DNA of 64,000 nt from Heptranchias perlo (taxonomy: Eukaryota): NCBI RefSeq assembly GCF_035084215.1, contig NC_090340.1, positions 28,582,001-28,646,000 on the forward strand, read 5' to 3'. A program made the translations under genes and the position numbers. Numbering within the stretch: position 1 is the first letter of the stretch; each line of letters opens with the position of its first letter. This document shows, piece after piece, positions 1,814-50,400 of this stretch. The notes below the pieces were generated by a model that saw nothing but the letters and a program-made list of their open reading frames with translations, did not search any database and was not told where the DNA came from.

Positions 1814-1981
1814 GGCCCTAAAATTCCACAGGATTCTCCTGATCTCCTGCTGTGATGGTGGCAGGACACCAGCAGAACCCCCAGAAAAACGGCCGTTGAT
1901 GCCGTTTTGCTGGCAGTTCCAGTGGGCTCTGCTGAAGTTATGGTTGGAGACTGAGAGAACATCTGTAGAAGTTTAGGGGCC
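1814..1981. mobile_element. Small MITE with Harbinger-like termini (paralog at 15048-15215)
   Basis: Starts ggccctaaaattccacagg and ends tctgt(a/g)gaagtttaggggcc, an imperfect ~19-bp TIR. Present in both duplicate copies, so it predates the duplication. No clear TSD. Confidence 0.6.
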
Positions 1982-7438: not shown

Positions 7439-7539
7439 TTGGAAACCAGTTTAGAAGACGCTTACATATAGCTGTGGAATCTTCATCGTTTCTTCCAATT
7501 CCAAGTGAGAAAACAGACAAACCTCTATCTAACATGCTC

Positions 7540-10260: not shown

Positions 10261-11281
10261 ATTAGTCTGCTGCTAAGGCACAGTACATGGCTGCTGAAAG
10301 GGTTTGAAAAGAGGCTTTTGCGAGATATGCTCAGCGATAGTTAATTCCTGGAAAATAAATCCTTCTTTTATATATCCACAGCTTGTAGAAAAATAAAGAA
10401 ATAAATGTATTCCCCTCAGTTACATAAATACATAAATTTGTGCATGTAATATGGGGCAGAAGGATTGTTCCATGATTCTTTTGTCCAGTGAAGTAATCTA
10501 AGGCATGGGGGCAAAGTGGAAATGTGTTTAATTTTTGATCAGATTTAGAGAGAATGCAGGAAGCCCAAAGGCCACAGACCTGGGCCTATATATTGGGAGT
10601 AACATTTCTGAGGGAGGGTGATGAGAGTGGGAGGAGTATGTCTCCGGAACAAAATGGTGGCTGAAAGGATTTTCAAAAATATTTGGAGGAATTTAATTGA
10701 TTCTTCTCCTTGCTATTGGGAGCAGTTTGCTTATTTTTGATTGGTATTTTTTAAACATTATGATAGTTTTCATTCCTGCTTGCTACTTGTTCATTAATAC
10801 ATTTCTGACTTAGTCACTGCCTTATGAATATAAAATGTCAGACAATCTGGTGCAAGCAAGATATTTAAATTTTCAGTGACACGTGTGATGCCTGAGGTGT
10901 AATGAACAAAATGTTTGCTAGGTGCAAGACTTTTTTTTATGTATAAATTTATTCACTCCTTTTAATAGAGCTTAAATTGATATTTGATTATGAAACAGAT
11001 TGGAAGGTATAGTATCAAGATAATGAAATATTCTACTGAATGTTATGCTTCATTCTTCCTGGGATGAGAGGGTTGTCCTTTGAGGAGAGGTTGAGTAGAA
11101 TGGGCACATACTGTGGAGTTTAGAAGACTGAGAGGTGATCTCATTGAAACATGTAAGATTCTGAGGGGCTTGACAGGGTAGATGCTGAGAGGCTGATTCC
11201 CCTGGCTAGAACTAGAGGGCATAATCTCAGGATAAGGGGTTGGTCATTTAAGACTGAGATGAGGAGGAATTACTTCACTCA

Positions 11282-13477
11282 TCTGTGTGGCACTACCACC
11301 GTGCTAAATGGGATAGATTCAGAACAGATCTAGCAGCTCAAAACTGGGCATCCATGAGGCGCTGTGGGCCATCGGCAGCAGAATTGTATTCCAGCACAAT
11401 GTGTAACCTCATGGCCCGGCATATTCCTCACTCTACCATTACCAACAAGCCAGGGGATCAACCCTGGTTCAATGAGGAGTGTAGAAGAGCATGCCAGGAG
11501 CAGCACCAGGCGTACCTAAAAATGAGGTGCCAACCTGGTGAAGCTACAACTCAGGACTACATGCATGCTAAACAGCGGAAGCAACATGCTATAGACAGAG
11601 CTAAGCGATTCCACAACCAACGGATCAGATCAAAGCTCTGCAGTCCTGCCACATCCAGTCGTGAATGGTAGTGGACAATTAAACAACTAACGGGAGGAGG
11701 AGGCTCTGCAAACATCCCCATCCTCAATGATGGCGGAGTCCAGCACGTGAGTGCAAAAGACAAGGCTGAAGTGTTTGCAACCATCTTCAGCCAGAAGTGC
11801 GGAGTGGATGATCCATCTCGGCCTCCTCCCGATATCCCCATCATCACGGAAGCCAGTCTTCGGCCAATTCGATTCACTCCACGTGATATCAAGAAACGGC
11901 TGAGTGCACTGGATACAGCAAAGGCTATGGGCCCCGACAACCTCCCAGCTGTAGTGCTGAAGACTTGTGCTCCAGAACTAGCTGCGCCTCTAGCCAAGCT
12001 GTTCCAGTACAGCTACAATACTGGCATCTACCCGACAATGTGGAAAATTGCCCAGGTATGTCCTGTCCACAAAAAGCAGGACAAATCCAATCCGGCCAAT
12101 TACCGCCCCATCAGTCTACTCTCAATCATCAGCAAAGTGATGGAAGGTGTCGTCGACAGTGCTATCAAGCGGCACTTACTCACCAATAACCTGCTCACCG
12201 ATGCTCAGTTTGGGTTCTGCCAGGACCACTCGGCTCCAGACCTCATTACAGCCTTGGTCCAAACATGTACAAAAGAGCTGAATTCCAGAGGTGAGGTGAG
12301 AGTGACTGCCCTTGACATCAAGGCAGCATTTGACCGAGTGTGGCACCAAGGAGCCCTAGTAAAATTGAAGTCAATGGGAATCAGGGGGAAAGCTCTCAAG
12401 TGGCTGGAGTCATACCTAGCACAAAGGAAGATGGTAGTGGTTGTTGGAGGCCAATCATCTCAGCCCCAGGACATTGCTGCAGGAGTTCCTCAGGGCAGTG
12501 TCCTAGGCCCAACCATCTTCAGCTGCTTCATCAATGACCTTCCCTCCATCATAAGGTCAGAAATGGGGATGTTCGCTGATGACTGCACAGTGTTCAGTTC
12601 CATTCGCAACCCCTCAAATAATGAAGCAGTCCGAGCCCGCATGCAGCAAGACCTGGACAACATCCAGGCTTGGGCTCATAAGTGGCAAGTAACATTCGCG
12701 CCAGATAAGTGCCAGGCAATGACCATCTCCAACAAGAGAGAGTCTAACCACCTCCCCTTGACATTCAACGGCATTACCATCGCCGAATCCCCCACCATCA
12801 ACATCCTGGGGGTCACCATTGACCAGAAACTTAACTGGACCAGCCATATAAATACTGTGGCTGCGAGAGCAGGACAGAGGCTGGGTATTCTGCGGCGAGT
12901 GACTCACCTCCTGACTCCCCAAAGCCTTTCCACCATCTACAAGGCACAAGTCAGGAGTGTGATGGAATACTCTCCACTTGCCTGGATGAGTGCAGCTCCA
13001 ACAACACTCAAGAAGCTCGACACCATCCAAGATAAAGCAGCCCGCTTGATTGGCACCCCATCCACCACCCTAAACATTCACTCCCTTCACCACCGGCGCA
13101 CTGTGGCTGCAGTGTGCACCATCCACAGGATGCACTGCAGCAACTCGCCAAGGCTTCTTCGACAGCACCTCCCAAACCCGCGACCTCTACCACCTAGAAG
13201 GACAAGAGCAGCAGGTACATGGGAAGAACACCACCTGCACGTTCCCCTCCAAGTCACACACCATCCCGACTTGGAAATATATCGCCGTTCCTTCATTGTC
13301 GCTGGGTCAAAATCCTGGAACTCCCTTCCTAACAGCACTGTGGGAGAACCGTCACCACACGGACTGCAGCGGTTCAAGAAGACGGCTCACCACCACCTTC
13401 TCGAGGGCAATTAGGGATGGGCAATAAATGCTGGCCTCGCCAGCGACGCCCACATCCCGTGAACGAATAAAAAAAAA
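11282..13477 (+). mobile_element. Young 5'-truncated HER1-like (CR1-group) LINE, copy A only
   Basis: One reading frame over 11285-13414 with a single TAG at 11669-11671. RT motifs NYRPISLLS, LDIKAAFDRVWH, GVPQGSVLGP and MFADDC. A-rich tail. TSD actca at 11277-11281 and 13478-13482. Confidence 0.93.
11285..13414 (+). pseudogene. LINE ORF2 reverse transcriptase; endonuclease domain lost, one nonsense codon
   Basis: ORFs 11285..11671 and 11747..13414 are in the same frame and cover the full RT domain. Confidence 0.9.
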
Positions 13478-16400
13478 ACTCAGAGGGTTGTGAATCTTTG
13501 GAATTCTCTACCCCAGAGGGCTGTAGATGCTGAGTCATTGAATATACTCAAGGCTGAGAGCGATAGATTTTTGGACTCTAGGGAAATCAAGGGATATGGG
13601 GATCGGGCAGGAAATTGGAGTTGAGGTTGACGATCAGCCATGATCTGATTGAATGGCGGAACAGGCTCGAGGGGCCATATGGCCTACTCTTGCTCCTATT
13701 TCTTATTTTCTTTCTTATGTTCTCTGAGAGTGGTGAATCTTTGGAATTCTCTACCCCAGAGGGCTGTGATGCTCAATCGTTGAGTATCTTCAAGACTGTG
13801 ATCGATAGATTTTTGGACTCTAAGGGAATGAAGGAATATGGGGATTGGGCGGGAAAGTGTATTTGAGGTCGAATATCAGCCATGATCTTATTGAATGGCG
13901 GAACAGGCTCGAGGGGCCATATGGTCCACTCCTGCTCCTATTTCTTTTGTTCTTATGTTCCGTCTTGTTGAAACAATGGAAACATAATTGTGGAACCTAA
14001 GTGGTCGGTGTTTTAAAACGTTATTTGTAATATTGTATTAGATTGTTATCTGGTGTTTTCACTTTATTGTCCAAGGGAATTCAAGAAGAAATGTTGCTCT
14101 TTTCTCTTTGTGGAACATTCATCTGTAGTTATTCAATTACTATTAGGAAAACCGTGACTCAATTTAATTGTTTTTACACCACGGTTAAAATGCATTACAT
14201 GGCCTATGCACTAATGTAAGTTAATAACACACAAACTTATTTTGACTCTTTCACTGGTTACACTTTGGAACTTAAGTCGCTTTCCCCTTCAGAGTAAGTG
14301 GAGAAGCACCAGCAGTTTAAATTCATTCTTCAAGTGACACATCAGCTTTCACTAAACATCAAGGTTACTGTCACCTTGAGAGACCTAACATTGGTGTTAC
14401 ATTTCCATTATCAGAAAATGTTTAATTCTTTTAAATTATGAACTTTCACATCCCTGAATCTCATGGGGCTGGGGTATCCAATGGACTTAGTGCCATTTTG
14501 ATGGCTTTTAGATATTTTCAGGTCCTGAAATCTCCCTGTACAGTGTAATGCTATTTGCTCCATGACACTCGGTTATAATTCCAGTACACTGATGTGACAT
14601 TGCACTGAAAATGGACTTAGATGAATGTATGTTGATGAATTTGGTTTTGCTAACTTGTGTATCATGTCAATGAATACAATTACAGGTTTGTGCCATGACA
14701 CATAGAACCGTGGTTACGATGTCAATGGAGATACAAAAAGCTCAAATAAAATTTAGCCCTTAGTCTGGTTAGCTAGACCTTCTGTTTTCAAAGCAGTGAT
14801 GATGTAATGTTCCTACTCATCAAGTTGAAGGTTGTGAGTGGGAATTGAACATTTTTCATTTCAGGCAAATAGTGTCAGCATTAAGTACTCTAAGGGCAAG
14901 TATAACACCATTAGATGCAAAGTAAAGCTCGCTCTTGTCTTCCCCAACAATGTACCTGAGCCCATACCTTTATTATGAAAAATGTTCTGAGTGCACAGTA
15001 TGCCCAACGCAAATTTCAGGGAAGTTTATCCAAAGAATACAGATTATGGCCCTAAAATTCCACAGGATTCTCCTCGTCTCCTGCTGCGATGGTGGCAGGA
15101 CACCAGCAGAACCCCCAGAGAAACGGCCGTTGATGCCGTTTTGCTGGCCGTTCCAGTGGGCTCTGCCGAAGTTATGGTTGGAGACTGAGAGAACATCTGT
15201 GGAAGTTTAGGGGCCACATTGCCCCCCTATAATGATTTCAGTGAAACCTGTAAATTCAGACACTTGCAGTATAACTGGCGAGTGATATCATTAATATAAC
15301 CATATGTTGAATTCTGGGAAGTGATGTGACACCACCTCAAATATGTAGACTCCCACTATTTGGTCTTCACAATGGCTGCAATATATCTGGTGGGAAAGCA
15401 TATTTTAAAACAACAAAATTAAAGTATAAAAATATCTCATATTGTTCAAAAAACTGCCTTTACATTTTTAATCTTAAACTACTGTACTGTCAGTATTTTA
15501 TTAAAGGGCATCCTGAAGAAAGCCCCATATATCTGGCTTGCGTTGTTTATAAAGCAATTACCCCCAGTCAAACTGGTATTTGCAGTATAAAAGGACCATA
15601 TGTTTGTTATACCAGGAAGATTCCCTTTTGGAAGTGAAGACTGGTATTTTTATAGCCTTTTTTCACATGTCTCAAATGTCAAAACATGCTTCACAATGAA
15701 TTACTTCAAGGTGCAGTGGGTGTTGTTACATAGCAAATGTGGCAATCAGTTTGCACTCAGCAAGATCTTACAAACAACAAGGAGATAAATAACCAATTAT
15801 TGATGGTTGGTGATGTTGAAGAAGGAATGTTGGCAAAGACACTGGGAGAACTCCCTGCTCTTCATCGACTAATTCAATGCGTGCAATATCCACCTGAGTC
15901 AATGAAAGAAACAGAGCCTTAGTTTAATATCTAATCTGAAGGACAGCATTATTCTATGTTTCATTAGTATCTCAAATATTGACAATTATACTTCATTTTT
16001 GTGTTTGTTAAGATGAAGAATAACATTATACTGATGAAAGACAGTTTATCTTATGCGTGCTCTCTCTCCTCTCCTCCATCTCCAAGAAGACCAACACAAG
16101 CCAGAAGTTATACAGACAATAGCTACAATCCTTATTGTCGCACATGGGGTGCGAGCTCTCTCACATGCCATGTACACAAAATTGTTGATGCAAAATGAGG
16201 AGCACTGTCATTTTGACTTAGATATTGTTATTCACTGTGTAAGCACTCATATTTGTACGATATTGCAACATATATTTTGACTTTCCTTTGAACCATTAGA
16301 ATAGCGAATTCAATGCCCAGGAACCAATTTGTGTAGCAATGTTCCTTCAAATGTTATTCCACATAGTTAAAGCAGACATTTATAAAGAGCGAAGTTACTT

Positions 16401-17749
16401 GTTATAACGTCAGATTGGTGTAAAATCTCCCACTTCTGAAACTAGGTTAAAATCAGCACTGAAGTAACTAAGTGAGACCTAGGCTGACATCAGCAGTCTA
16501 ATTTAATCCTGATTCATCACCCGTCCCATGATTCAGTAGCACATATATCAGAGGAGAGCTTAGTATGATTGTCATGAACATGTATGTGTTTTACGGTGGA
16601 AAACAGGCCAAAGAGAGGATTAAGGCATGCAGTGCAACTGATTGCTTTAACTTGCTTTTTAACAACTATTAGCACAGAAGGGCCATTTTCAAATATTTAC
16701 TTAAAACACAACACGCAGTCTCACCTCTAATCCAGTATACTGGCTTTAGGAGTGAAGGTTTCCACAATGTATTAATGTCCATTCCCTTTGGTGTGCTTGT
16801 TTCCGTAATTGCACAATTTATTAGTTCTGTCCACCACATGTCCTAGTTGAATAGACACACGGTGTGAACAGAAGGTCAAATTGAGTTTGAATCAATTGAA
16901 TTCAGTTCCATGATTAGTCTTGGTGAAAGCTGCAATGTCCAACAAAATGTTTCACGTGGTTCAAAAGCTCAACATTAAGCACTGCCACATATTGAAAATG
17001 GTATCATTAACACATTTGTTACGAAAGGTATTTTTCTGTTACACTGATTGATTGAGTACTGGTTCTTATATTAGCTCTGTGCACTTTGTAAAAATAGTTT
17101 TTATTGCAAGGTCATGATCTGTGAAACACTTTTAAAATGTCTTCAAAATCAAGAAACTGTAAAGTACAATTTCCAATGAATGATTTTGATGCTGGACTTT
17201 AGGTTTTATTGAGGATCTCTGGTGTGTGGAAGAGAGTTGGAAGGGTTCATACTCAGTAGGACAGTAAATGCTTTAGCTTCCCATTATATAATGTTTATAA
17301 ATAGCTTTGTGGGTAAATGTACCATGTGGCCCAATGTTCTATCCTTATTCCATCCTAAGTTTACTAATCTCAAATGGGACAGCTGTTGCGGCACAACAAT
17401 TAGCCTAATCACTCCCGGGGCAGAGAAGGGGGAAAGAAATCAGTCAAGATTTCTCCTCCCAACTGTTATCGATTGATCCCTGCTGGAAACTACATGTGTT
17501 TGGAGGTTTGTTGAGGGCAAGATCAGGTTCAGTTATTGATTCCATACATTGTGTCTAGGTTGAACAGTCTGGGGGAAAAAGTCGATCAGGCCTATTATCG
17601 GGTGCGGCCACCCAATACCTGCGGAGCTGCAGTCTGGAGGGTCTCACGCTGGTCCTGCCATCCTTCTGGCTATCTTTCCCTCCTCCTCGTGGATTGTGCA
17701 TGTCCCATTTAAAATGTACACCTGCATCTTTAAGAGGTGCAGGCTGCTG

Positions 17750-19239
17750 ATGGCGTGCCCTGAGCACGCCCCATTTCAGGCTTCCTCATTCTCCATGCAG
17801 CCTTTCAGCAGCGCGGGAGTCCAGGTGAGTGAATACAAGTGTCAAGTGGCACATCCTACCAACTGCACCACTGCTCACGCATCAAACTCCGCCCCGTCAC
17901 CCACCCACCAACAAACACTGCCCATCCATATGCAATGTTGCACTCAGCATTCTGCATCTTACCAGCACATACTACCACACTTGCAGGCCACACAACCAGC
18001 GCTCACAGGTCACACACACTGGCAGCTATTCTACCATGACAGGCACATCACCCAGACACCTTGCAGGGTGCTCACTGGCACACTGCCCTCTGTCTTGCAG
18101 GAGAAGGTGGCTTGTCCCTTGGAGGAGACTGTGCTTCGGATCATGGGCAGGATGTCTCTGCAGCCGTGACAACATGCCACGCTGGAGGTCCTGATGAAGG
18201 GGGTCTCTGTATTTCTAATGCTCCTTCTCCTTTCCCACATCTCCCTCCTCCCATAATCTTTTCTGACTCACGTGCTGCAGATGCTGTCAGCACACACGTC
18301 TTACTTGCTCCTCTCCCCGCTCCACAACTCAACTTGTTTCCCTTTGTCATTGCAGATACCCAAGAACACATGGCAGCACCGTCAGAGGAGGAGGAGGAGG
18401 AGGAGGAGGAGGGGACACTGAAGCCACACCGTCAATTGTTCTGACAGTTGCTTCCACCCGGCTCAGTGACTGACACTGTGCAACATTTGGAGGTTAGGTT
18501 AGAGGAGGGATCTGCACGTGGAGAGACACCAAGCAAAAGTGCGCAGGTGCTGGGGCGGGGGGAACGGATACCACAGGTGCCAGCTCGCTGGAGGGCAAGG
18601 TTGTTCACTAGTTCTGCTGCAGAGGAGTCAGATGATGACTTCGATGGGCCAGGCTACAGAGGATGGCTGATGGGCGTACACCACCAAATGCTTGGGACAC
18701 TGGAAAGCCTGCCGGAAAGCCTGTGCACAATAAGAAGGGGCATGGAGGAGTCCAGCTCCAACTTGGCACAGGGCTTTGCGCAGAGCTTGGAGCCCATCCT
18801 TACCAACATGAAACGGATGGTCACCTCCATCGGCACACCTGTGGAACCCAATATGATGCAGCATCTGATGGCCGATGTCGTGGCTGCCATGTCATCAAAG
18901 GTCTGCAAACTACGGTTGCAGCTCAGACTGCTGCAATGGAAGCTCAGACTGCGGCTATCCTGGCTGTGGAACGGGGCTTCCAGGGCGTCACAGCAGTCCA
19001 GCAATCCCATTCTCCAGTTGATCACCAGGATTGCTGAGGCGTCGCCCCGGGAGAGTGGCAGTGGTGCCATGGCAGTTGGACCTGCTGTTCTCTCTCAGGA
19101 CGACAGCATTCCTGCTCCCACCCCTGCCACTCCGCCAGTGCCCTTGTTGTTGCCTATGAGCCAGCCAGGCCAGGCTGCTGCAGCCCATGCTGAGATGGTG
19201 CAGTCTGAAGCCGGGCCCTCCTGGCCCAAAGCTGCGTGA
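17750..19239 (+). pseudogene. Harbinger Myb/SANT-like partner gene remnant (spliced, exon 1 internally deleted)
   Basis: Donor cag|gtgagt at ~17825 and acceptor ttgcag|gagaaggtggc at 18100. The same junctions follow a recognisable Myb-like exon in the 43812-45522 copy. The long ORF 18448-19239 is inferred to be the C-terminal part. Confidence 0.65.
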
Positions 19240-19351
19240 GGTCATCCTCCAAGGCCATCTGCAGGCTTCTCCATTGAAGGCCAGCAGCCTTCCACCACCC
19301 ATGCTCCAGCCACTGGGGATACACCTCATAGGAGCACTAGGATAGGTAAAG

Positions 19352-20049
19352 ATGATGTGGAGATGCCGGTGATGGACTGGGGTGGACAAATGTAAGGAGT
19401 CTTACAACACCAGGTTATAGTCCAACAGCTTTATTTGAAATCACAAGCTTTCAGAGCTTTGCTCCTTCGTCAGGTGAAGTGAAGAGTTACATAAAGGCAC
19501 AGCATATATAGTCAGAGAACAATGCCTGGTGATTACAGATAATCTTTCTAACAGCCCTTTATCACACCTCGGCAGAGAGATAATCACAGCAATCAAAGGA
19601 GTGAATGGTGTTCAAACAGGTTAGTCAGGGAAACATTACATCCAAGAATACTGAGGTGGGGTCACCAGGGGTCAAATGTAGCAGATGCTGGAGTTTGTAT
19701 TAAAAACAGATAACTTTTTTTTGCTGGAAATCGCAGCAGGTCCGGCCGCGTCTGTGTATGGAGAACAAGCCAACTACGACTTGAGTCTGGATGACTCTAC
19801 GTCAGGTGGGGTTACATGTTGCGTGATATGAGCCCAAAATCCTGGTTGAGGCCATCCTCATGGGTGCGGAATTTGGCTATCAATTTCTGCTCGACGATTT
19901 TGTGTTGTCGTGTGTCTCGAAGGCCGCTTTGGAGAACGCTTACCCGAAGATCGGAGGCTGAATGTCCTTGACTGCTGAAGTGTTCCCCGACTGGAAGGGA
20001 ACCCTCCTGTCTGGCGATTGTTGTGCGGTGTCCGTTCATCCGTTGTCGC
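19352..20049 (-). mobile_element. 5'-truncated Penelope-like retroelement nested in the Harbinger
   Basis: GIY-YIG C-terminal fragment LRQRMNGHR...PVGEHFS..GHS..DLRVSVL...EQKLIAKFRT..GLN. 8-bp TSD aggtaaag at 19344-19351 and 20050-20057. Its 3' end matches 47303-47427. Confidence 0.9.
19441..19477 (-). ncRNA. Minimal type I hammerhead ribozyme motif
   Basis: Minus strand reads UCAC-CUGACGA-A-GGAGC(AAA)GCUCU-GAAA-GC-UU-GUGA: core boxes, stem II, and a UCAC/GUGA stem I. Confidence 0.75.
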
Positions 20050-20129
20050 AGGTAAAGGCACACAAACAACAGGCGCTGAGGGAATGCACAAGGGTGAATA
20101 GTTCTGTTTTGTTTCCATAATTTGATTTG

Positions 20130-21510
20130 TTAATTGATAAATGTGACTTTGAATTTGCATTTGGTGGTGTTTTTTATTTGTACAATGAGCTGAGGGGGAA
20201 ACCAATGTTCAATCAGATGGAGGGCGATTTGATGCTCATGTGGGAGCAGAAAGGTGAGGAGTGTAGGATTGCTGGTGAGTTGGGGGATGTAGCTGACATT
20301 ATTGATAGCGGGCACGGATCGGGTGAGCGCGCAGAGCCCTTGCAGACAAGGCGTGTGTTCCCTGTTGCACCCTTGCATCTTCCTCAACTTCCTCCTCTGG
20401 CTTCTCCCCATCCTCGTCAGCCTCTTCCTCCTCAGCCTTTTCCTCCTCAGCCTCCACCTCTGGCTCAGGGTCATCTCCGATCTTTGGTGGCAAGGGTTGG
20501 TCCCTCATGACGGTGAGGTTGTGCAGTATGCAGCATACCACCACGAAACATTCCACCCGCTCACCGGAGTACTGGAGGGCTCCTCCAAAACGGTCCAGGC
20601 AGCGGAAGCGTTGTTTCAGGAGGCCTATGGTGTGCTCCACAACGTTACGTATGGCAACATGGCTCTCATATTAGGACTCCTGCACATGTGTGCATGCGTT
20701 CCTGACCGGAGTCATGAGCCACGGTGTGAGGCGATCGCCCTTGTTGCCCAGTAGCCAGCCTTTAACTTGCCGAGCTGGGTGAAAGATAGCTGGCATGTTG
20801 GAATGCGTGGTGACTGCTCCCAGGATAGCGGGCATCGATCTCCATGATTCGATGCATGTGGTCGCACATCAGCTGCATGTTCAGGGAGTGGAAACCCTTT
20901 TGGTTGACAAAGACGGCCGACTTGATATGTGGGGCACGCAGGGCAATGTGCATGCAGTAAATGGCCCCCTGCACCATGGTGAAGCCAGCAATATGAGTGA
21001 ATCCCCGTTTGCTTGCTTGTTCTGGTTGCCTCTATCAAGAGGGAAGATGGTGAACCTGTTCCTCATCTCGTACAGTGCGTCTGTGACCTCCCTTATGCAG
21101 CAGTGCACTGCATACTGCGAGATGTTGCAAATGTTGCCAGCAGAGGCCTGAAATGATACTCAGCTGTAGAAGTTCAGTGCCACAGTTACCTTCACAGCCA
21201 CAGGCAATGCTGTCCTTGCCCTGCTCTGAGGCTGAAGTTGTGGCCACACCAGTTGACAGATCTCTGTCATGGCCACCTTGGTGAACCTCAGCCGTCGGAT
21301 GCAATGCTCCTCGCTCATGTTGAGGTAAGAGAATTTGTCCCAGAAGGCCCTCATTGGATATGGCCTCCTGTTCAGTGCCCTACACCTCCTCCTCCTCCCT
21401 ATCCTCACAGCTTGCCCTGCTGAGTATAGCCTCTCTGCATACTCCCAGTCATGCTCAATGCCCAGCAGGAGCCCTAGCAACGACCCACGGTTGCCAGGAA
21501 TGTTGTTCAA
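20130..21510 (-). pseudogene. HARBI1-like DDE transposase, frameshifted
   Basis: Fragments SEEHCIRRLRFTK, LPVAVKVTVALNFYS, VQGAIYCMHIALRAP, NQKGFHSLNMQLMCD, ARYPGSSH and EHTIGLLKQRFRCLD...CCILHN, followed by an acidic tail. Confidence 0.92.
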
Positions 21511-22994
21511 CCACGGTTGTAATTTTTCAAACCGTAAGGCAGTACCTGCCAGACCACTCTCAAATGTACTGTAGCAACTTCAGTAAGTATAGGGAGCTTC
21601 AAAAAACACTTCCTATGCCACCAGCAACCAGCAACTAACCTGCAACATCTGCATGGTCCCTTTAAATAGCGCTGGTGGTGGGGTCCTCCAGGCTGTCTAA
21701 GACATGTTCAGGTGTGCATGGTTAAGGCTGTGCATTAAGTTGAGTGTTAAGTCCCAAAATGGTGTCTACCACTTTAAATCAGCGTTGCACACTGATTGTA
21801 CACATTTTCTCCCTACTTTACATGCTGCCGGCGTTTGGTATTTGCGCATGCGTTAATACCTACACCAAGATGGTGTCCAGTGCACATCACGTTGGAAATG
21901 TGCGTGCGCAGCCAAAACGGCATCTTGACACTTTGGGAGGCTGTGTAGCGACGTAACAATGGGCGCTACGCGGCCCAATTACTAGCCCTCTCTGTCTAGG
22001 CTCACAGGGGTGAGTTGCTAGTGTCCATAGAATTACTCAAGAAAATGTTGGAATTTGGAATTTGCTTAAGCGCTGAAATTCAATGCTGAACTCTTGACTA
22101 ATGAGATTTACCAGGGAAACTGAATACTCTTTGGTTCAGAATGTGCACTCCAGGCATCCCTGCATATTGAAATGTCTTCTAAGGTCAGGAAATTGCACTC
22201 CTGAATGGTTAGGCGCCCTGTGATGATTTGAAACATAATCATATACAGATATACAATGTATGACACTATGCCACATCAACCCCGAGTCCTTGCACATAAA
22301 TTAGCTTAACAATCCCACCTGATACACAACAAACTTTTTCAAGATTATTCCTAAAAAAAATCAAAACTTTTATGGTCCTTCTTTTATAGAAGCTGAAGTA
22401 TTTTCATTTTATTTTTGTATTTTCTCCACAGTGTCTTCCCTGGGGAGAAAATAAGGTCCTGGGCCACACAACTTGGAAACCAGTTTCTTCCAATTCCAAG
22501 AGAGAAAACAGACAAACCTCTATCTAACATGCTCAGGATCTCTGACAGTACTGGAATTTCACCTGTGGATTGCAGAGTGGCCCATGTCATCCTAATATTT
22601 TTTAAAAACCAATGAATCATAGACCAGTTAATTTAGCATTTTTAGTGGAGAAAATGCTTGAGGGCATTTTCCAGGATGCTATCAATGTTATAAAGCACAG
22701 AGACCATAAGAGGCAATCAGCATGGTTTTAAAAGCAATCAGTTATGCCTCAAATAAATGTGGGAATTCTTTAAGGAAGTGACTCAATTAGTGAACAAAGG
22801 ATATCCGGTGGAGGTAATATACTCGGATTTTCTACAGGCATTTGACAACGTTCCACATCACAGGCTTCCAAAAAAAGATAATGGTGCATGAAAGAAATGT
22901 CATATTAACTAAATAGATTGATAATAAGCTTGGCAATAGAAATCAGGAGTGAATGATAAAGGAACAAGACTGTACTTAGGACCAGTGACTGGTA

Positions 22995-24734
22995 GGGGTC
23001 AATTTTCAGATGGCTGAGTGGGTGCATTCGTGGCGCGGGGGCTCCTAAAATTTGAGATTCCCAGAGCAGGTCCGGAGCCCGGCTCCAACCCGCCCACTCC
23101 CGGGTTCCCCAATGATGCGAATCGGTTCGCGCGCAGCCCCCGTATGCGTGACTCCCACCGGCAATTTGAGCCAGTGGGATGACAGTTTAGATAGTTAGGG
23201 AGGTACTTGAGGGTTGACAGGCCTCATTGGAAAGAGATTTTAGCAGGGATGTGATTTTGGACTCTCCGCAGCATGTTTGCCATGCTGTGGGAAACACTCC
23301 CTGTTGTTGCAGATGTGTTTCAGTCAGCAGCCATTTGGAGATGCAGAGGATTCCTTGAGAGTTGGGGGGAATACCTCATTCATTGCAGCAGGGCACTCTA
23401 TCACCTCAGACAAACTTTTGCCTGCCACACCGTTGTCTCCACACTCAAAATTATTACATCATACCCTAAACTCTGCTGTCCAAACACATTTACCTACCTT
23501 GCGGACCCCCTCACACTGACACCATCAGGATGGTGGGGAGGGGGCGGGGGTTCCATAGCTGTATTCATCACTCCATTGGAGGACGAGCAATATCACCATC
23601 CTCGCCAGGCATGCCATCCACCTCCGCCACGTGGAACTACACAACACAGTGTTACGCAACAGGCACCTGCACAAAGTAGTCGTGCAACTACACATACACC
23701 CACTGTAGGGTGACCCAATGGGTGGCATCAAGGGTGTTCATGGAGAACCTCATAAAAGGGCATTATTGCACAAGCCAGACAAGAATGGCCAAGATGTGGC
23801 AGTAGTGGTGACAATATAATATGTAATGTGAGTTGATCAGAAATCAAATATAAGTAAAAACCATGACAAACCCTCAAACACCCTTGTGCATCCCCTTCAT
23901 GCTCAAGACACATTTGCCTTATGCTTCCTACTACACATACGTGGTACATGCCCTGTGGCTGCAGCACAAGTAGTGGCAGGTGGGGTGAGGCGGACCATGA
24001 AAGAGATGCATGAGAGGGTGAGAATGAGACAGAGCCATGAGATTGTATGAGGATTGGGTTGAGTGGTAGTGGGGGGATGAGTACTGGGGAGGTGAGGAAG
24101 TGCAGGTAAGATGAGGATGAGGTTTCAGTGGGTGTGAGGAGTGATGTGATAGAGTAGTGTTGGCAGTGCAGAAGGTGATGTGGCAGATGGAGTGTAGGGG
24201 AATGAGTAAGAGTACTCACTTCGGCTGACCTGGTTAGGTCATTGAAGCGCCTCCTGCACTGTATGCAGGTGCGTGATATGTTGGTGGTGCAGGTGACCTC
24301 CTCTGCCACCTCAAGCCAGGCCTTCGTGGTGGCAGAGGAGGGCCACTTCCTCCCGTCTGCCAGGTGGAAGATCTGTCTCCTCCTCCTCGTCCTCCTCCTC
24401 CTCACCCCATCCAGCAAGATCTGGAGTGAGGCATCATTAAGCCTGGGAGCAGCCTTCCCCCTGGGCTGCTCCATGCTGTAATTTTGCCTATTTTCTGCAG
24501 CATTAGTCAGTGGAGAACTGCCCCTTTAAATAGGGCTCCTCCAGCTGACAGCCTATGATATGGGTGTGCAGTCCGCCCGCTGCGCAGCTTTCCAGCGCGA
24601 AACGCGGAAGCCAAGATAAGTGGCTTCAATTTACTTATGATCGCGTGCCAAACCCACCGATTTCACTGGGTGGGTTACCCACGTGCCCAGCCGACCCCTC
24701 GCTGCCAACCCACCTCCCTCCTAATATTGGGCCC
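22995..24734 (-). mobile_element. Internally deleted PIF/Harbinger element (family 2), copy B only
   Basis: TIRs ggggtcaatttt and aatattgggccc. Flanks gta/ata. Empty site at ~7991-8005. Homologous in inverted orientation to 54407-56446. Confidence 0.9.
24220..24474 (-). CDS. Open Myb/SANT-like DNA-binding exon of Harbinger family 2
   Basis: MEQPRGKAAPRLNDASLQILLDGV...KAWLEVAEEV...RTCIQCRRRFNDL followed by the donor gtgagt. Expression is not shown. Confidence 0.6.
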
Positions 24735-26280
24735 ATAGGGTTTCTTAGGAGTTTGTTTTAGGTTTTTTGCTCTTTGCGCTATTCGTAAATGATATAGAAA
24801 AGGATATTTTTTTTCAATAAAAAATTTGTAGAGTCCAGATATCCTCTGCAGGGGAGGGCGATAAAATTCAAAAGAATCTATGCAAAATGAATAGATAGGC
24901 TGAGGAATGATAATACATTCACATTAAATATAATTTATGATGCACTAAGTTTCGAAAATGTGAAACATGTATAGAATAGATGGATGTCAACTGAAAAAGA
25001 AGAAATCAGATTTGGGTCTACCCATCAAACATTCAATTACAGTGTCCATATAAGGCCATTGTCAACAAGGCAAATGGAGGCCTTGGATTATGTAACATTT
25101 TGAGATTTTTACACTTTCAGCCTACAGAGGATCTTTGGTTTAATTTATAGTACATTACCTATGTAAAGTCAGGTGCAGTTTACAAAGAATTAATTCCAGC
25201 ATACTTTTCTGATTTCACATTGAAAAGCCTATAAACACTGAATAGTTGGTGATTTGCAACGTTAATATGCTATTCCACTGTAAAATTAATAGCCATTAAA
25301 ACTGTTTACTTTTGGAAAATACATTTGCTTTGAAATAAAGGGAATCCATTGAGTATATCCCAGAGCAGTTAGCATCCTAATGTTACAATGGGTTTTTATT
25401 CAATCTGTCCAGAGTGGGAGAGGAGGGGTTGATCTCACCTTAAAAGACAATTGTACAAGGAGTGATAAAAAAACAGTTGTATTATATTCATTTATATATT
25501 TCATGTAAAATAAACCAGTTTGTTGAGTCACAATCAGCTTTGTCTCACGAGAATGCCATTCACCCCATCTTTTGAACAGATAGGAGAACACACATAGAGG
25601 TGTGTGCAAGATCATAGTATCCCAGTGGACACAACAGGAGGGGTATTATTTTAATGATCCCCAAGTCACACTATCATATAACTAGACATTAGGCAGCAAA
25701 GGTGCTCTCCAGATCATAGAGAATTCAAGATCTGCTTATGGTAATGGCCAGTGATACTGAACTTGATAGAATATCAACTGTCGGCCTCTAAATTTGTAAT
25801 AGATGCCTCTCTTGAGATGTCTGATTCAAAGTCAAAGCAAGCTACTTGAAACCTTGTTGGTGAGATCACATTTGAAACATTGTATATGGGTATGGTTTCT
25901 TAACTTCAAAAGTACACTGATACATTTGAAAAGTTTCAGATACAAGGTAGATGATTCCAAGAGCCAAGACATAACGTTTAGTGGTTATGGTCACAGAATT
26001 TAGGTTTTCCTCATTGGACAAGAAATTAAAGGACATAATTTAAGTATTTAAATTGCTGAAAGACTGGGATAATGCAGGAATAAGTAATTATTCAAAACAC
26101 AAGGATAAAATCAGAAAATCCCAAGCCAGCATAGAACACATTGTATACCCATAGAGAAGTAGATATGTGGAATGGATTCTCACCACAAATACCACATGAT
26201 CAATGTGATGTTACTTATGGTAAATTAGAGGACACATGTTTTAAAAGGACAGGAATGATATGGCATATAAGGTACAATGT

Positions 26281-26363
26281 ACGTCAGGACCGCGACGGAC
26301 CTCCACCAGAGTTTCCTTTGGCTTCGCCCTGCCCAGGCATAGTTCACCATCTTTCAGGTCCTA
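26281..26363 (-). pseudogene. ~82-bp fragment of 28S (LSU) rRNA, copy B only
   Basis: The reverse complement taggacctgaaagatggtgaactatgcctgggcagggcgaagccaaaggaaactctggtggaggtccgtcgcggtcctgacgt matches the conserved vertebrate 28S core. Empty site aatgt|attag at 10256-10265. Confidence 0.93.
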
Positions 26364-27160
26364 TTAGTCTGCTGCTAAGGCACAGTACATGGCTGCTGAA
26401 AGGGTTTGAAAAGCGGCTTTTGAGAGATATGCTCAGCGATAGTTAATTTCTGGAAAACAAATACTTCTTTTATATATCCACAGCTTGTAGAAAAATAAAG
26501 AAATAAATGTATTCCCCTCAGTTACATAAATACATAAATTTGTGCATGTAATATGGGGCAGAAGGATTGGCCCATAATTCTTTTGTCCAGTGAAGTAATC
26601 TAAGGTATGGGGGCAAAGTGGAAATTTTAATTTTTGATCAGATTTAGAAAGAATGCAGGAAGCCCAAAGGCCACAGACCTGGGCCTATATATTGGGAGTA
26701 AATAACAAACCAGAGTAACATTTCTGAGGGAGGGCGATGAGAGTGGGAGGAGTATGTCTCCGGAACAAAATGGTGGCTGAAAGGATTTTCAAAAATATTT
26801 GGAGGAATTTAATTGATTCTTCTCCTTGCTATTAGTAGCTTTTTGCTTATCTTTGGTATTTTTTAAACATTATGATAGTTTTCATTCCTGCTTGCTACTT
26901 GTTCATTAATACATTCCTGACTTACTTAATTGTTGCCTTATGAATATAAAGCTTGACAATCTGTTGCAAGTAAGATATTTAAATTTTCAGTGACACGTGT
27001 GATGCCTGAAGTGTAATGAACAAAATGTTTGCTAGGTGCAAGACTCTTTTTTATGTATAAATTTATTCACTCCTTTTAATAGAGCTTAAATTGTTATTTG
27101 GTTATGAAACAGATTGGAAGGTATAGTATCAAGATAATCAAATATTCTAATGAATGTTAT

Positions 27161-29449: not shown

Positions 29450-31010
29450 TTTTTATTCGTTCACGGGATGTGGGCGTCGCTGGCAAGGCCGGCATTTATT
29501 GCCCATCCCTAATTGCCCTCGAGAAGGTGGTGGTGAGCCGCCTTCTTGAACCGCTGCAGTCCGTGTGGTGACGGTTCTCCCACAGTGCTGTTAGGAAGGG
29601 AGTTCCAGGATTTTGACCCAGCGACAATGAAGGAACAGCGATATATTTCCAAGTCGGGATGGTGTGTGACTTGGAGGGGAACGTGCAGGTGGTGTTGTTC
29701 CCATGCGCCTGCTGCCCTTGTCCTTCTAGGTGGTAGAGGTCGCGGGTTTGGGAGGTGCTGTCGAAGAAGCCTTGGCGAGTTGCTGCAGTGCATCCTGTGG
29801 ATGGTGCACACTGCAGCCACAGTGCGCCGGTGGTGAAGGGAGTGAATATTTAGGGTGGTGGATGAGGTGCCAATCAAGCGGGCTGCTTTATCTTGGATGG
29901 TGTCGAGCTTCTTGAGTGTTGTTGGAGCTGCACTCATCCAGGCAAGTGGAGAGTATTCCATCACACTCCTGACTTGTGCCTTGTAGATGGTGGAAAGGCT
30001 TTGGGGAGTCAGGAGGTGAGTCACTCGCCGCAGAATACCCAGCCTCTGACCTGCTCTCGTAGCCACGGTATTTATATGGCTGGTCCAGTTAAGTTTCTGG
30101 TCAATGGTGACCCCCAGGATGTTGATGGTGGGGGATTCGGCGATGGTAATGCCGTTGAATGTCAAGGGGAGGTGGTTAGACTCTCTCTTGTTGGAGATGG
30201 TCATTGCCTGGCACTTATCTAGCGCGAATGTTACTTGCCACTTATGAGCCCAAGCCTGGATGTTGTCCAGGTCTTGCTGCATGCAGGCTCGGACTGCTTC
30301 ATTATCTGAGGGGTTGCGAATGGAACTGAACACTGTGCAGTCATCAGCGAACATCCCCATTTCTGACCTTATGATGGAGGGAAGGTCATTGATGAAGCAG
30401 CTGAAGATGGTTGGGCCTAGGACACTGCCCTGAGGAACTCCTGCAGCAATGTCCTGGGGCTGAGATGATTGGCCTCCAACAACCACTACCATCTTCCTTT
30501 GTGCTAGGTATGACTCCAGCCACTGAAGAGTTTTCCCCCTGATTCCCATTGACTTCAATTTTACTAGGGCTCCTTGGTGCCACACTCGGTCAAATGCTGC
30601 CTTGATGTCAAGGGCAGTCACTCTCACCTCACCTCTGGAATTCAGCTCTTTTGTACATGTTTGGACCAAGGCTGTAATGAGGTCTGGAGCCGAGTGGTCC
30701 TGGCGGAACCCAAACTGAGCATCGGTGAGCAGGTTATTGGTGAGTAAGTGCCGCTTGATAGCACTGTCGACGACACCTTCCATCACGTTGCTGATGATTG
30801 AGAGTAGACTGATGGGGCGGTAATTGGCCGGATTGGATTTGTCCTGCTTTTTGTGGACAGGACATACCTGGGCAATTTTCCACATTGTCGGGTGGATGCC
30901 AGTGTTGTAGCTGTACTGGAACAGCTTGGCTGGAGGCGCAGCTAGTTCTGGAGCACAAGTCTTCAGCACTACAGCTGGGATGTTGTCGGGGCCCATAGCC
31001 TTTGCTGTAT
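29450..31010 (-). mobile_element. Young 5'-truncated HER1-like LINE with open RT frame
   Basis: Near-identical reverse complement of ~11912-13475. The ORF is open from TAKAMGPD to the stop at 29509. Confidence 0.93.
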
Positions 31011-31395: not shown

Positions 31396-31636
31396 GGAGG
31401 TGATTTTAAACCCCAAGAACGGGTGGGTTGGGGGCGGGTAGGAGTTGAAAATAGTTGATTTTTGGATCACAACCACAAAATTTTCGGACTTTGCATTCCC
31501 AGTGGGAAGCCTGTACTTTTACGCGCCAACGTTAAACCCGGAAATAAAGCCGGGTTGCGGTCGCGACCCAAGAAACAATTATTCTCAACTCCCACCCGCC
31601 CCCAACCCACCCGTTCTTGGGGTTAAAATCACCCCC
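31396..31636. mobile_element. MITE with ~80-bp terminal inverted repeats
   Basis: ggaggtgattttaaaccccaagaacgggtgggttgggggcggg... is mirrored by ...cccgcccccaacccacccgttcttggggttaaaatcaccccc. TSD not clear. Confidence 0.85.
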
Positions 31637-46149: not shown

Positions 46150-46937
46150 ACTCTGCAACACACAATACTTATTCACAATTTTCTTTTTCATACTTTTCAA
46201 CCAAACTTTTGGACCCGCCAGTGACTTTTAAATATTGAATATTTGTACAATGCAGGGAGATTAAACTGCCACTCTATAGGCATATTGAAATGTTAATAAA
46301 TTGCACTATACAGAGCCTTTCCGGAGGCAAGTCCATAAAAGTCATATTTTTATGGACTTTAAACCAACCAAATGAAACTTTTATTAAAATTCTGGAACGC
46401 TCTGGCTCCCTCCTTTACTACATCTCTCCCCACCTTCAAAGGCCATTTTAAGCCATCAATACCAGCCACCTTGTTTAATTTTCCCTCCTGCTCCTGCTCA
46501 GGTCTATCTCCCAACTGTGAAGCACCTTGGGATGTTTTGCTACTTTAGAGGTGCTGTATCAATGTACATTGTGCACTGGATATATATTAGCTTTATCTTA
46601 AAATTCACTTGATATATAGAATATTTTGCAGTCTTGAGGAAAATATAGTTTACAATGGCAATTTCTGAGCCGAGATTTAAAAGAATTTAAGTGCATTTTC
46701 CCCGTGTTCATAGCTGAATAACAACTGCTTCTAACATTCCGGGGAGACCAAGCTTTCTTCCGGAAAGGCTTTGTTTGGTGCATTTTATTAACATTTCATT
46801 ATGCCTAAAGAGTGGCATTTTAATTTCCCTGCAATGTACAAATATTCACTATTTAAAAGTCACTGGCACGTCCAAGAGTTTAGTTGAGAAGTATGAAACA
46901 GGAAATTGTGAATAAGTATTGTGTGTTGCAGTAGAGT
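46150..46937. repeat. Long imperfect inverted repeat, ~175-bp arms (46153-46328 and 46757-46931)
   Basis: ctgcaacacacaatacttattcacaatt is mirrored by aattgtgaataagtattgtgtgttgcag, and complementarity continues inward to gcctttccgga/tccggaaaggc. Confidence 0.9.
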
Positions 46938-47224
46938 AATTTTCTTTTGTGCAACTGAATGCACTGTTCCTCCGTTAAAGCTCCTTTTAAAAGATAATGA
47001 GCAGGATTTTACGCTGTTGCCGATTGTTAATTAATCAGCGGAATATTAAAGTGACAAAGCTCGCCACCATAGTTTCTGCCTTTCTCTTTCAAAGCCCTTT
47101 AGAAACGACTGCTCCGTGACAAATATTCTGCCATTTTCTGAACGTTTAAATATGTCTTATTTTTGAAATGTAAATTTGTTAGAGCATTCACTCGTTATGT
47201 CGATTCACGAATCAATAATATTTG

Positions 47225-47424
47225 TAAGGAATCTTACAACACCAGGTTATAGTCCAACAATTTTATTTTAAAATCACAAGCTTTCGGAGATTATCCCCTT
47301 CGTCACCTGACGAAGGGGATAATCTCCGAAAGCTTGTGATTTTAAAATAAAATTGTTGGACTATAACCTGGTGTTGTAAGATTCCTTACATTTGTCCACC
47401 CCAGTCCATCACCGGCATCTCCAC
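47225..47424. mobile_element. Penelope-derived 200-bp palindromic mini-insertion
   Basis: Perfect 83-bp inverted arms at 47223-47305 and 47308-47390 with a 2-nt loop and a ~34-bp unpaired extension. 14-bp TSD atcaataatatttg at 47211-47224 and 47425-47438. Confidence 0.93.
47303..47339 (+). ncRNA. Minimal type I hammerhead ribozyme motif
   Basis: Reads UCAC-CUGACGA-A-GGGGA(UAA)UCUCC-GAAA-GC-UU-GUGA. Predicted cleavage after 47335. Confidence 0.78.
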
Positions 47425-50400
47425 ATCAATAATATTTGGACTACGTTAATACTAATAGAATGAAAACAGCTGAAAGGGATAAAAGAAATTTATAATTTGC
47501 AAGGTTGAAATCATAGAATTTGAAATGTTAATCGTATAGATATTTTTAAAAGTGAGACCAATGAATGATGCATCTGCTTTTTTTGGTATGAAGGCTGTAC
47601 ATGTGTTTCATAAACATTGTAAGATCACTGTTGTGTGTAAAAGGCACATCATAATATTAAAATAAGCCATGGGGATTACAGGAGAGTTGTAATCTACCAA
47701 GGAAACCGGATGAAGAGGAGAACAGGTGTCGCCGAATGTTTTAGGTGCTTTGTTTATATTTGTTACATTTCTAGTAGTTCCTCGGGGAACACAGCTATTA
47801 TTTTACAGAATAAATGAGTGTTCATCATCTTATTGCGATATTTACTCAAAATCCTCACCGGAAATATGCTTATTTTCACTCTGCTTTTGATCTTCTAAAT
47901 CAATGGAGTCAGAGATGGAACAGTCATAATAAAAATTAGTTTAGGATCCACATGAAGAATTGTAACCCACTCCATGAATGATGTTTCAATTACAAAATCC
48001 TTTAAAGCTTAGATCTCCTGTACGCAACATTCTTGTTAATTACCCAGGGAATATTTTTCCTTTAATATAATTTGATCCATTGAATAATCTCTGAATACAT
48101 TCTATACTCAGAGGTTTACACTGCTGGTGGCATCACTCATCCTGTGCACAACTCGCATTAAAGGGTAAAATCATATCTAAGAGTACACTAAGCTCGCTTC
48201 TACTTCAAATCTATCTCACTGAGTATTTCTTGTGTTCAGTTTTTCAATTCAGGAGTTCTACGTTCATGTTTGTGATCCCAAATGTGGGGAAATTTGGACC
48301 CTTTACGTAAGAGATCTCAAATTCACAATGTAGCAGGCAGATAATGAACTAAAAAACATCAACAAATGGCATTTGGAGCAGACTGCGGGGTATTTCTGTT
48401 AACATTCCTCCATTGTCTGCGTCACCATGTGGCATCCCATGTACCCAAGACCAAGACAATGGGGTAGCTTTTTCAATTGACCCTGTCAGCTAGCACGTTG
48501 ACCTTAACTGATTTGGTGAGGTCAGCTTTATTTGGATAGTGTGGGTGAGCTCCCGGCCCATATTGGGCCCGGCATTGGAAGTTTACCAGAGGGGGCCAAG
48601 TGACAGAGTGATGCAGCACTCTAACCCTTGTTTGATGACTGGAGAAATGGAGGTGCTGCCAAATACGATGGAAGTGAGAGATGACTCTGCTTTCCATTCC
48701 AGGGTACCACTGCCATTGGACAGCATTGCAGCATGTCTGGAAAGAGGCAGAGAATGAGAGGCACACCCCAGCAGCCCTGGGCATCTATGTTACATGGACG
48801 GGTAGATGAATGAGCGCTGTACTGGTGTAAGTAGTGGAAAATTACATTGTTGTCTAAGTAATGGCCTAATTTTAATATAATTAACTGCAAACTGGCAGCA
48901 GCACAAAATTTAACCAAAAACTTGGATGGGACACTAAATGGCAGAAATCTAGCTTAATGGATGTTTAACAATTTTTCCGATCAGTAGTACCCAATTTTTA
49001 ACCACCAATTAGACATATCCAATTGAAAGATCTATTCCATGACTCTAAAAAAGGTGGATTGTGGTATTTTCTATTTTGTAACTCTATTCAGATACGAACA
49101 TTGACTGGAAATGATGGCAGAAGATTAAGAATCCTCAAGACAGATCAGTTTGGCTTGTCATTGTCAGAAACTTTGGTGTCCACAAGCATGCATCTTCCCT
49201 TTGATAGAATATTTGTAGCTAGTATGCAAAAAAAAACATCCTTTGCTCCTGGACACAGTTTAATCTAAAGCCATAGAGATGATTGACCTTGATGAAGACA
49301 GGCCAGTCAATGCAAGAGTTCAACCTTTCCAACGTCAGTGATGTGACCAAAATGTGATGAAAGTAACAACACAACAGTCAGTAGTACTTAAACCAGACCA
49401 GAAGCACGCAAACATCATCCTATTATTTGGTATCAACCTAATGGCAGCGGCTGTGCTTCACACACCCATTTCTACTGCACGCAATCTCCCTGAAGGTCTG
49501 CAACACTGCCTCTTGTATGTAAAATGTTTTAAGCACAAAGTTAACAATCACTCCAAGGTAGCCAAACCATTATATTGGTTTGTGAAAAGCTGCTTGTGTA
49601 TTGATACCTGAACAAAATTCTTTCAAGTGTTTCTGTGCTCTCAGCAACCACCAGGGCTGGTTTGTGATCTGTCCTTTTATAGTTATTTCCAGCTGCATTC
49701 TGTTACGCCACCTAACGTATAAAACTAAATCACTTGATCAAACAAGAGTGATTTTCTTCACATGTGATGCACTATGGCCTTGTATGTGTGTAAAATTTAT
49801 TTACCAAAACTTGAATGTTCAGAATGAGCATAAAGTAAATCCTAGTACTCAGAACAGAACTGAGTTCCGTAATGGAGCTCTTTTATTTATAAATATACTG
49901 GAATGAACTTGCGTGGGCAACGACTGGTGAAACTTGACCAATGAAAGAAGGTGAATTTGAATGTCAGTTAAGACTTTGAACTTTGGTTCTCTAGCTGAGT
50001 CTTGCACTTTACCACTTGAAGTAGCAGACCATAAATTGTCCTACTATCCATCCATAACCACATCACTGGCATTGACCTTATTAAAATCTTGTGTTCTTCC
50101 TTGCTCTGATATTGTGCTGTTCATTGATTGAATACAGTGCCAAAGTGGATAAGGGTCATACTTGAGATGGCAGGTCCAAAGTTGTGAAACCTGTCGACAG
50201 GACATGAGCAGCGATGCCTCTGGCAAATGTTTTCAAGGCAGAGCTGTTTGGAATGCCTCAGGTTTTAATAAGCACAGATATGTCTGAAAACTATGTGAAT
50301 TACATTGGATGTGACAAGCTTGCCTCCTTGCTTTGATTAATTGGCATCATGTCACTTTTCTGCACCTGGCTACAATTTGCATGCATTCTTTATTTTGCCT

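Follow-up and report, generated by a model that had tools for sequence, protein, structure and literature searches.

A perfect hairpin of Penelope-like origin in Heptranchias perlo, very probably a young truncated insertion whose mirror arm was built during insertion

Results

Anatomy of the 47-kb insertion

In the 64,000-nucleotide stretch of Heptranchias perlo DNA that we analysed (the window), a hairpin is flanked by a 14-nt direct repeat whose two copies (47211-47224 and 47425-47438) match exactly. Its two arms (47223-47305 and 47308-47390) are 83 nt each, are 100% complementary and are separated by the 2 nt CC. Among the 25 longest of the 58 inverted pairs in the window, the arms at 47223-47390 form the sole perfect pair. 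An initial annotation of this DNA had described two mismatch-free 83-bp arms, a 2-nt loop and a perfect 14-bp target-site duplication, all of which we found again at the same positions.

Read from left to right, the locus begins with the left target-site duplication (47211-47224, plus strand), of which 12 of the 14 bp are A/T and the last 2 nt are complementary to the element at its tail-less end. Arm bases 47223-24 fall in this duplication, and 81 bp of arm lie inside the insertion. Next comes an 81-nt copy of the element's 3' end in inverted orientation and without a tail (47225-47305, minus strand); in it the hammerhead core has G for its first C and the stem I partner is absent. The fold-back centre, TCA-CC-TGA (47303-47310, plus strand), combines a 3-nt microhomology with the 2-nt loop, and the same 8 nt are also natural family sequence. 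The right arm (47308-47390, plus strand) repeats the element's 3' end in direct orientation and stops at a recurrent tail-less end of the family. On this side only, it continues into a tail (47391-47428, plus strand) whose final 4 nt overlap the right target-site duplication (47425-47438, plus strand; 14 bp); bases 47425-28 are at once the start of that duplication and the family's own last 4 bases. The extension of about 34 bp in the initial annotation corresponds to this one-sided tail, and the 4-nt overlap refines its length to 34-38 nt. Microhomology is present at both junctions, 2 nt on the left and 4 nt on the right, and the A/T content around the insertion site is 70%.

No change was found at the 190 compared positions (two 81-nt arms and two 14-nt duplications), which bears out the earlier view that the insertion is recent. 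Barring later homogenisation of the arms, the two sides have diverged by at most 1.6% per site since insertion (95% upper bound). The insertion is real and recent, and it contains the tail end of a Penelope-like element twice, head to head. There is no ORF in 47225-47424, neither reverse transcriptase (RT) nor endonuclease (EN) being encoded at the locus, and a scan of 47303-47428 found no ATG; the insertion is a truncated, non-autonomous copy, a passive stump. As RNA, the 200-nt hairpin has a predicted free energy of -139.9 kcal/mol (z = -27, with none of 200 shuffles equally stable), and the tail is single-stranded in the predicted fold. A search for host genes in 31100-53600, covering 80 stop-to-stop frames of at least 62 aa, gave nothing credible, the single Pfam match (1 of the 80 frames) being weak and below the cut-off; short exons would escape such a search.

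The source element family

The only other copy of the family found within the window lies at 19352-20049 on the minus strand. This related copy, a simple 5' truncation, comprises a GIY-YIG C-terminal remnant, the 3' region, a hammerhead at 19473 and a tail, and is bracketed by an 8-bp target duplication (19344-51 and 20050-57). The right arm and tail of the 47-kb insertion match its 3' end with 92% identity over 121 nt. Its 79-aa ORF remnant had no Pfam match by itself, and it has 229 relatives at E<=0.001. An 881-aa homologue (P0007), whose C-terminus is 66% identical over the remnant, contains an RVT_1 domain (E 4e-10). When eight homologues of the remnant were searched against Pfam, RVT_1 was found in 5/8 and GIY-YIG in 4/8, one of the GIY-YIG matches exceeding the curated cut-off. 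Five of the eight homologues looked up are from the sharks Chiloscyllium, Rhincodon or Mustelus. The Penelope-like origin proposed in the initial annotation is upheld by this match to an element with RT and GIY-YIG homologues.

The 881-aa homologue has a CX4CxxC linker; the 79-aa remnant in the window stops short of the linker region. According to the available text of PMC8557442, a CX2-5CxxC linker between RT and EN marks the Neptune and Nematis types and is absent from Poseidon. Judged from these sequences, the parent element was an endonuclease-bearing Penelope-like retrotransposon, probably of the Neptune type. The two copies in the window represent sister subfamilies, because their hammerheads differ in stem II. 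The proposed link between the two loci therefore needs dividing: they belong to the same family, but the 19-kb copy is a dead 5'-truncated fragment of a sister subfamily and not the source of the hairpin.

Exact-pattern scans for family copies found none in metagenome contigs and none in viral contigs. At least 120 genome-contig loci contained the 15-nt pattern (the 80 listed being prokaryotic), and we rejected these as chance matches, the best alignments reaching only 19-25 nt. A protein-led locus search of metagenome contigs gave 190 pattern matches, none of which was confirmed.

The hammerhead motif

A minimal type I hammerhead motif occupies 47303-47339 on the plus strand, as identified by a motif scan and by a descriptor taken from the available text of PMC4209133. 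It is composed of stem I (47303-06/47336-39), the core (47307-13) with an extra A at 47314, a 5-bp stem II (47315-19/47323-27), the GAAA (47328-31) and a loop-less, palindromic stem III (47331-34), all on the plus strand. The motif combines a CUGANGA core, GAAA and UH with an unpaired nucleotide before stem II, G10.1-C11.1 and a palindromic 15.2-16.2. Both the anatomy and the predicted cut after 47335 agree with what the initial annotation had put forward. When the descriptor was applied to both strands of the whole window, it returned two motifs (47307 on the plus strand and 19473 on the minus strand) and none in 100 block shuffles. The minus-strand arm had been said to lack the first core C; a G stands there, and the stem I strand is broken as well, leaving a complete motif on the plus strand only.

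Stem II varies at its fifth pair: A-U in the 47-kb copy, C-G in the 19-kb copy and G-C in another variant, which appears in loose ends of contigs. This covariation, in three variants only, suggests selection on the fold within the family. A G at one arm position makes a G-U pair in stem II and is the same in both arms. The hammerhead call is made because the motif, the published descriptor and the stem II covariation point to it; the Rfam hammerhead models, which had been recommended as a check, gave no match at gathering score in the whole window. At E<=10, no hammerhead was among the 20 matches in 47100-47550, which were to miRNA, sRNA and other models and fell far below their cut-offs. A miRNA gene was considered and rejected: the precursor matches scored 41-68 bits against cut-offs of 83-200, and only the long stem lies behind them.

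The initial annotation had also anticipated that a long hairpin would compete with the ribozyme fold, and the predictions go the same way. The forced hammerhead fold reaches -86.2 kcal/mol vs -139.9 kcal/mol for the hairpin, a predicted gap of 54 kcal/mol. Predicted stem I pairing is 0.996 in an RNA of 47303-47345, falls to 0.2 in an RNA of 47303-47428 and is about 0 when the 5' end of the transcript lies at 47296 or further upstream. The word "intact" used earlier for this ribozyme accordingly holds for the DNA sequence and not for transcripts started upstream: in read-through RNA the motif is predicted to be locked in the hairpin and inactive. It is the motif ordinarily carried by its family. 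In related systems, as far as the available texts describe them, work on the minimal hammerheads of metazoan Penelope-like elements (PLEs) found a monomer uncleaved and little cleavage of dimers (PMC4209133), eight of nine frog retrozyme dimers were uncleaved (bioRxiv 10.64898/2026.07.22.740005), and the anole Poseidon hammerhead needed protein (PMC11167929).

Family abundance, ends and fold-back centres in read-derived contigs

We aligned contigs from 4 of the 9 listed sequencing runs (X1, X4, X5 and X7) to 47285-47660. X1, X4 and X7 come from one sample and are not independent; X5 is from another organism. The alignments comprised 15,347 contigs for X1 and 23,196 for X4, with almost all of the depth over 47298-47440. 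There, the summed depth peaks at 3-5 x 10^5 times that of the unique flank, a figure that is inflated by overlapping contigs and is not a copy number. X7, which is guessed to be an RNA run, contributed 2,505 family contigs. The family is very abundant.

Family loose ends run into long, A/T-rich flanks of low agreement. Among the rows listed, 64, 75 and 78 X1 contigs have loose ends behind 47392, 47393 and 47395, respectively, and 145 (X1) and 128 (X4) contigs have them behind 47428. Back-steps of 35-37 nt begin at 47390-92. The piles near 47390-95 and at 47428 are two ends of the family, one tail-length apart. At the 47-kb locus, the right junction is the tailed family end and is bridged with 0 differences by read-derived contigs in both DNA runs (X1 and X4). 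The left junction lies 2-5 nt from the tail-less piles. The tail-less end of this locus (47388-90) stops 2-5 nt before the piles that head the listing, an observation that sits against the mechanism preferred in the Discussion. None of the contigs listed spans the whole insertion or the whole aligned stretch; 5 contigs in X1 and 12 in X4 overrun the ends of the stretch, including a right-flank contig, and the left end alone accounts for 4 and 11. Nor did an empty allele appear among the contigs on this stretch, which runs from inside the left arm into the right flank; this and the lack of a spanning contig also weigh against the preferred mechanism.

Depth in the left-arm bin, 47285-47297, requires the same fold-back centre as that of the 47-kb hairpin. 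This bin reached 108 (X1) and 92 (X4) times the single-locus depth. It was uncovered in X5 and in X7, the latter lacking cover on the flank as well, and we give neither gap any evidential weight. The hammerhead reached 126,862 (X1) and 71,308 (X4) single-locus equivalents, of which the hairpin centre makes up about 0.1%. Our reading is that the same centre is present at tens to about 100 loci. A second centre, 1-2 nt away and with a 1-nt loop, was found in one X4 contig, in which 5 letters are inserted after 47301, at about 4 times the single-locus depth. These two centres are the ones visible among the rows listed, and the 47303-47310 centre dominates. Such dominance of one centre would also be expected from a self-copying family, a point against the preferred view.

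Discussion

A mirror arm made at insertion

The 47-kb hairpin is very probably a young, severely 5'-truncated insertion of an EN+ Penelope-like element, with a mirror arm that was built during insertion rather than inherited. The initial annotation had offered a choice between a one-off snap-back product and a mini-element family. The likeliest case is a different one, a recurrent de novo product: the hairpin is most likely remade at each insertion, with the TCA-CC-TGA microhomology favoured. We regard the origin as recurrent because the same centre is present at about 100 times the single-locus depth and a second centre exists as well, and both observations speak against a one-off product. 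We read the layout as that of an EN+ PLE because the head-to-head copy, the one-sided tail and the target duplication match published insertions. Two start sites of reverse transcription are proposed because family ends pile up behind 47392-95 and 47428.

Within de novo construction, we lean somewhat towards dual priming over snap-back. In dual priming, the GIY-YIG domain would nick both strands of A/T-rich DNA at positions that, to judge from the duplication, were 14 nt apart. One freed 3' end would prime reverse transcription at the tailed start, 47428, where there is a 4-nt microhomology, and the other would prime at 47390, about 38 nt upstream, with a 2-nt microhomology. Both cDNAs would then stop at the 5' edge of the hammerhead, join via TCA/TGA and be filled in. 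The template RNA was uncut at the hammerhead, because sequence on either side of the predicted cut was copied.

Other explanations

Under snap-back, the tail-primed cDNA would likewise stop at the hammerhead 5' edge, its TGA would fold onto TCA, and the RT would go on to copy its own cDNA; the endonuclease or the top-strand end would finally resolve the intermediate at the tail boundary. We hold this to be possible, at roughly one chance in three. In the family's natural sequence the centre is already a 3-bp mini-hairpin, and the arms are identical at 81/81 positions, including the G of the stem II G-U pair. Identical arms fit copying from a single molecule at least as well as they fit dual priming, and are an observation against the latter. 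Against snap-back stands the general knowledge that priming from a 3-bp stem closed by a 2-nt loop is very weak, and the 1-nt loop of the alternative centre is poorly explained. The available texts propose that junction palindromes arise by self-priming (PMC3846280) and that the tail results from resolution by the EN (PMC8557442), but the left junction lies at a site matching an RT start in the anole element (PMC11167929). The mirror arm might instead have been inherited, if the hairpin were a self-copying mini-element, a non-coding dsRNA hairpin of about 200 nt centred on the hammerhead 5' edge, with a Neptune-type protein mobilising it in trans. This is unlikely in our assessment. Its centre does recur at roughly tens to 100 loci, and its predicted fold leaves the tail, which bears the cis signals, unpaired; pLTRs alone were enough for trans mobilisation in a rotifer (PMC3846280) and PLE-derived retrozymes exist (bioRxiv 10.64898/2026.07.22.740005), as the available texts report. 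However, the centre makes up only about 0.1% of the hammerhead depth (108 of 126,862 and 92 of 71,308), a second centre exists, and the left end is a recurrent end of the whole family, for which fresh priming accounts with no need of a hairpin template. The RT would also have to cross an 81-bp duplex and then halt at the family's own start site, and the ribozyme is predicted to be unable to fold in hairpin RNA. If, improbably, such a mini-element does exist, its mirror arm would switch the ribozyme off and keep the template uncut. In a milder version, the clustering of centres at stem I may mark where the 5' end of the Penelope template RNA really lies.

We give very little credence to an assembly or library artefact in which chimeric reads, folding back within an abundant repeat, produced the palindrome. 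In its favour, the whole stretch is spanned by none of the listed contigs, and the sample of the DNA runs may be the same as the source of the window. The 14-bp duplication nevertheless brackets the unit, whereas a chimera would mirror the flank and not stop at the tail boundary. In addition, contigs of two runs cross the right junction with 0 differences, both runs have depth over the loop-spanning part, and the four best runs contain 91-97% of the sampled words. Equally improbable is an origin in two steps, in which a tailed copy was inserted first and the mirror arm was added later through template switching by host replication or repair at a quasi-palindrome. The natural family sequence upstream of the core is a short imperfect palindrome, as this would need, but the end of the arm at the recurrent tail-less end and its abutting an intact duplication would be left unexplained.

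Comparison with known systems

The layout of an inverted copy with a tail is already described for Penelope-like elements. In the available text of Arkhipova et al. 2013 (PMC3846280), rotifer elements have an inverted pLTR, a 31-bp tail, a target-site duplication and palindromes at the inverted junction. In EN+ PLEs, a 5'-truncated copy lies inverted and one end carries a 30-40-bp tail, according to the accessible part of Craig et al. 2021 (PMC8557442). As compared with these published accounts, the 47-kb insertion shares the head-to-head 5'-truncated copy, the one-sided tail of 30-40 nt, the variable duplication (14 bp here and 8 bp at the 19-kb copy) and the palindrome or overlap at the junction. 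Unlike the EN+ PLE insertions described there, only the last 81 and about 125 nt of its copies remain, the whole insertion is a perfect hairpin with no ORF, and the inverted junction sits on hammerhead stem I.

The anole protein PAc (Poseidon, Anolis carolinensis; Frangieh et al. 2024, PMC11167929) provides a biochemical counterpart. In vitro, according to the part of that source available to us, it cut and extended both strands, a double-strand nicking; two RT start sites bound the tail, and uncut RNA was used, hammerhead cleavage being unnecessary. The 47-kb locus resembles this system in its two ends one tail-length apart, its A/T-rich target, its hammerhead in the pLTR and a template copied without hammerhead cleavage. 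There are also differences: as described in PMC11167929, PAc starts reverse transcription without homology to the cut DNA, whereas the 47-kb junctions have 2-4 nt of microhomology, and the PAc ORF begins within the hammerhead, whereas 47303-47428 has no ATG. Moreover, the closest full-length homologue has the CX4CxxC of the Neptune/Nematis type, which Poseidon lacks in the account of PMC8557442.

With the metazoan PLE hammerheads in the available text of Cervera and De la Pena 2014 (PMC4209133), the 47-kb motif shares CUGANGA, the extra nucleotide before stem II, G10.1-C11.1, a palindromic loop-less stem III and a stem I of 4-5 bp. Its stem II has 5 bp vs 7-8 bp in the Schistosoma motifs of that source. 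Pairs of metazoan PLE motifs on opposite strands are reported there at distances of 100-700 bp. In contrast to the motifs described there, the one at 47 kb lies inside an 81-bp duplex that is predicted to block its folding.

Non-LTR retrozymes are likewise short, non-coding and derived from PLE pLTRs, with a type I hammerhead (bioRxiv 10.64898/2026.07.22.740005, in its available text). In that description, they are head-to-tail tandems with at least two complete hammerheads, whereas the 47-kb insertion is head-to-head with one, and its ends are the proposed RT start sites and not, as in retrozymes, the ribozyme cut. We rejected a retrozyme at 47 kb on these grounds, there being no tandem units and one complete motif in a head-to-head arrangement.

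MITEs and fold-back DNA transposons have terminal inverted repeats at both ends and a DNA-transposase partner. This class was rejected too: at its right end the insertion carries a tail without a pairing partner, and its sequence is homologous to the end of a retroelement.

Significance

As a single locus the hairpin carries little weight, being no more than a dead stump in a family that is very abundant. In the literature accessible to us, we found no description of minimal palindromic stumps in sharks or as a family. The mechanism behind the inverted copies and tails of Penelope-like elements is described as undefined in the available text of PMC8557442, and the 47-kb hairpin is a clean footprint of the Penelope insertion mechanism. 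A shark-type genome with many young hairpins could separate dual priming from snap-back through counts of centres, of ends and of the variants in each arm. Should the hairpin copy itself, ribozyme-bearing non-autonomous retroelements would include a new design, the head-to-head counterpart of the tandem retrozymes. If such loci are transcribed, their perfect 81-bp duplexes could feed RNA editing or small-RNA pathways.

Other repeats in the window

The window also holds repeats other than the Penelope-like hairpin at 47211-47438. A long repeat is present as two collinear copies (361-11046 and 14137-27160) with 87-97% identity, each broken by its own, different later insertions. Another pair of copies, 11913-13473 and 29450-31010, lie in opposite orientation to each other with 98.4% identity and carry RT-like frames of 580 and 537 aa; their motifs suggest a young LINE-type family. 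Additional frames at 2856-3896 and 6141-7079 are presumably RT-like, and those near 20299-21579 and 23728-24525 presumably Harbinger-like.

Inverted repeats also occur elsewhere. The 179-nt segments 46153-46331 and 46753-46931 are inverted relative to each other, with 89% complementarity and a spacing of 421 nt; this pair ends 280 bp upstream of the hairpin insertion. The pair was without similarity to the Penelope end and is possibly a DNA-transposon remnant. An older palindromic element at 31396-31636 (arms of 74 nt at 86%, spacing 76 nt) is without a hammerhead motif and appeared MITE-like by eye.

Features of the Penelope-like copies

In the 5'-truncated Penelope-like copy at 19352-20049 (minus strand), an insertion of about 150 bp (19654-19815, minus strand) is nested immediately 3' of the stop codon, flanked by 12-bp direct repeats with one mismatch between them. 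At its start are a hammerhead-like core and a stem of 5 bp; the GAAA side is degenerate, and this motif failed the minimal-hammerhead descriptor scan of both window strands. The 5' boundary of the insertion is at the 5' edge of this core, just as the fold-back point of the 47211-47438 hairpin is at the 5' edge of its hammerhead motif. The insertion possibly represents a second Penelope-end family.

An AATAAA at 47346-47351, 10 nt 3' of the predicted hammerhead cut, is common to the hairpin insertion and the 19352-20049 copy and could be a polyadenylation signal.

Among family copies in read-derived contigs, some carry tandem back-steps of 33-37 nt that terminate at the tail-less end (from 47390/47392 to 47356; family contigs, sets X1 and X4 from one sample, and X5 from another organism). 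A tail-to-tail joint links 47393 to 47427 on opposite strands, and in one tandem pair 40 letters separate the copies. Such junctions point to priming having occurred repeatedly at the internal start site.
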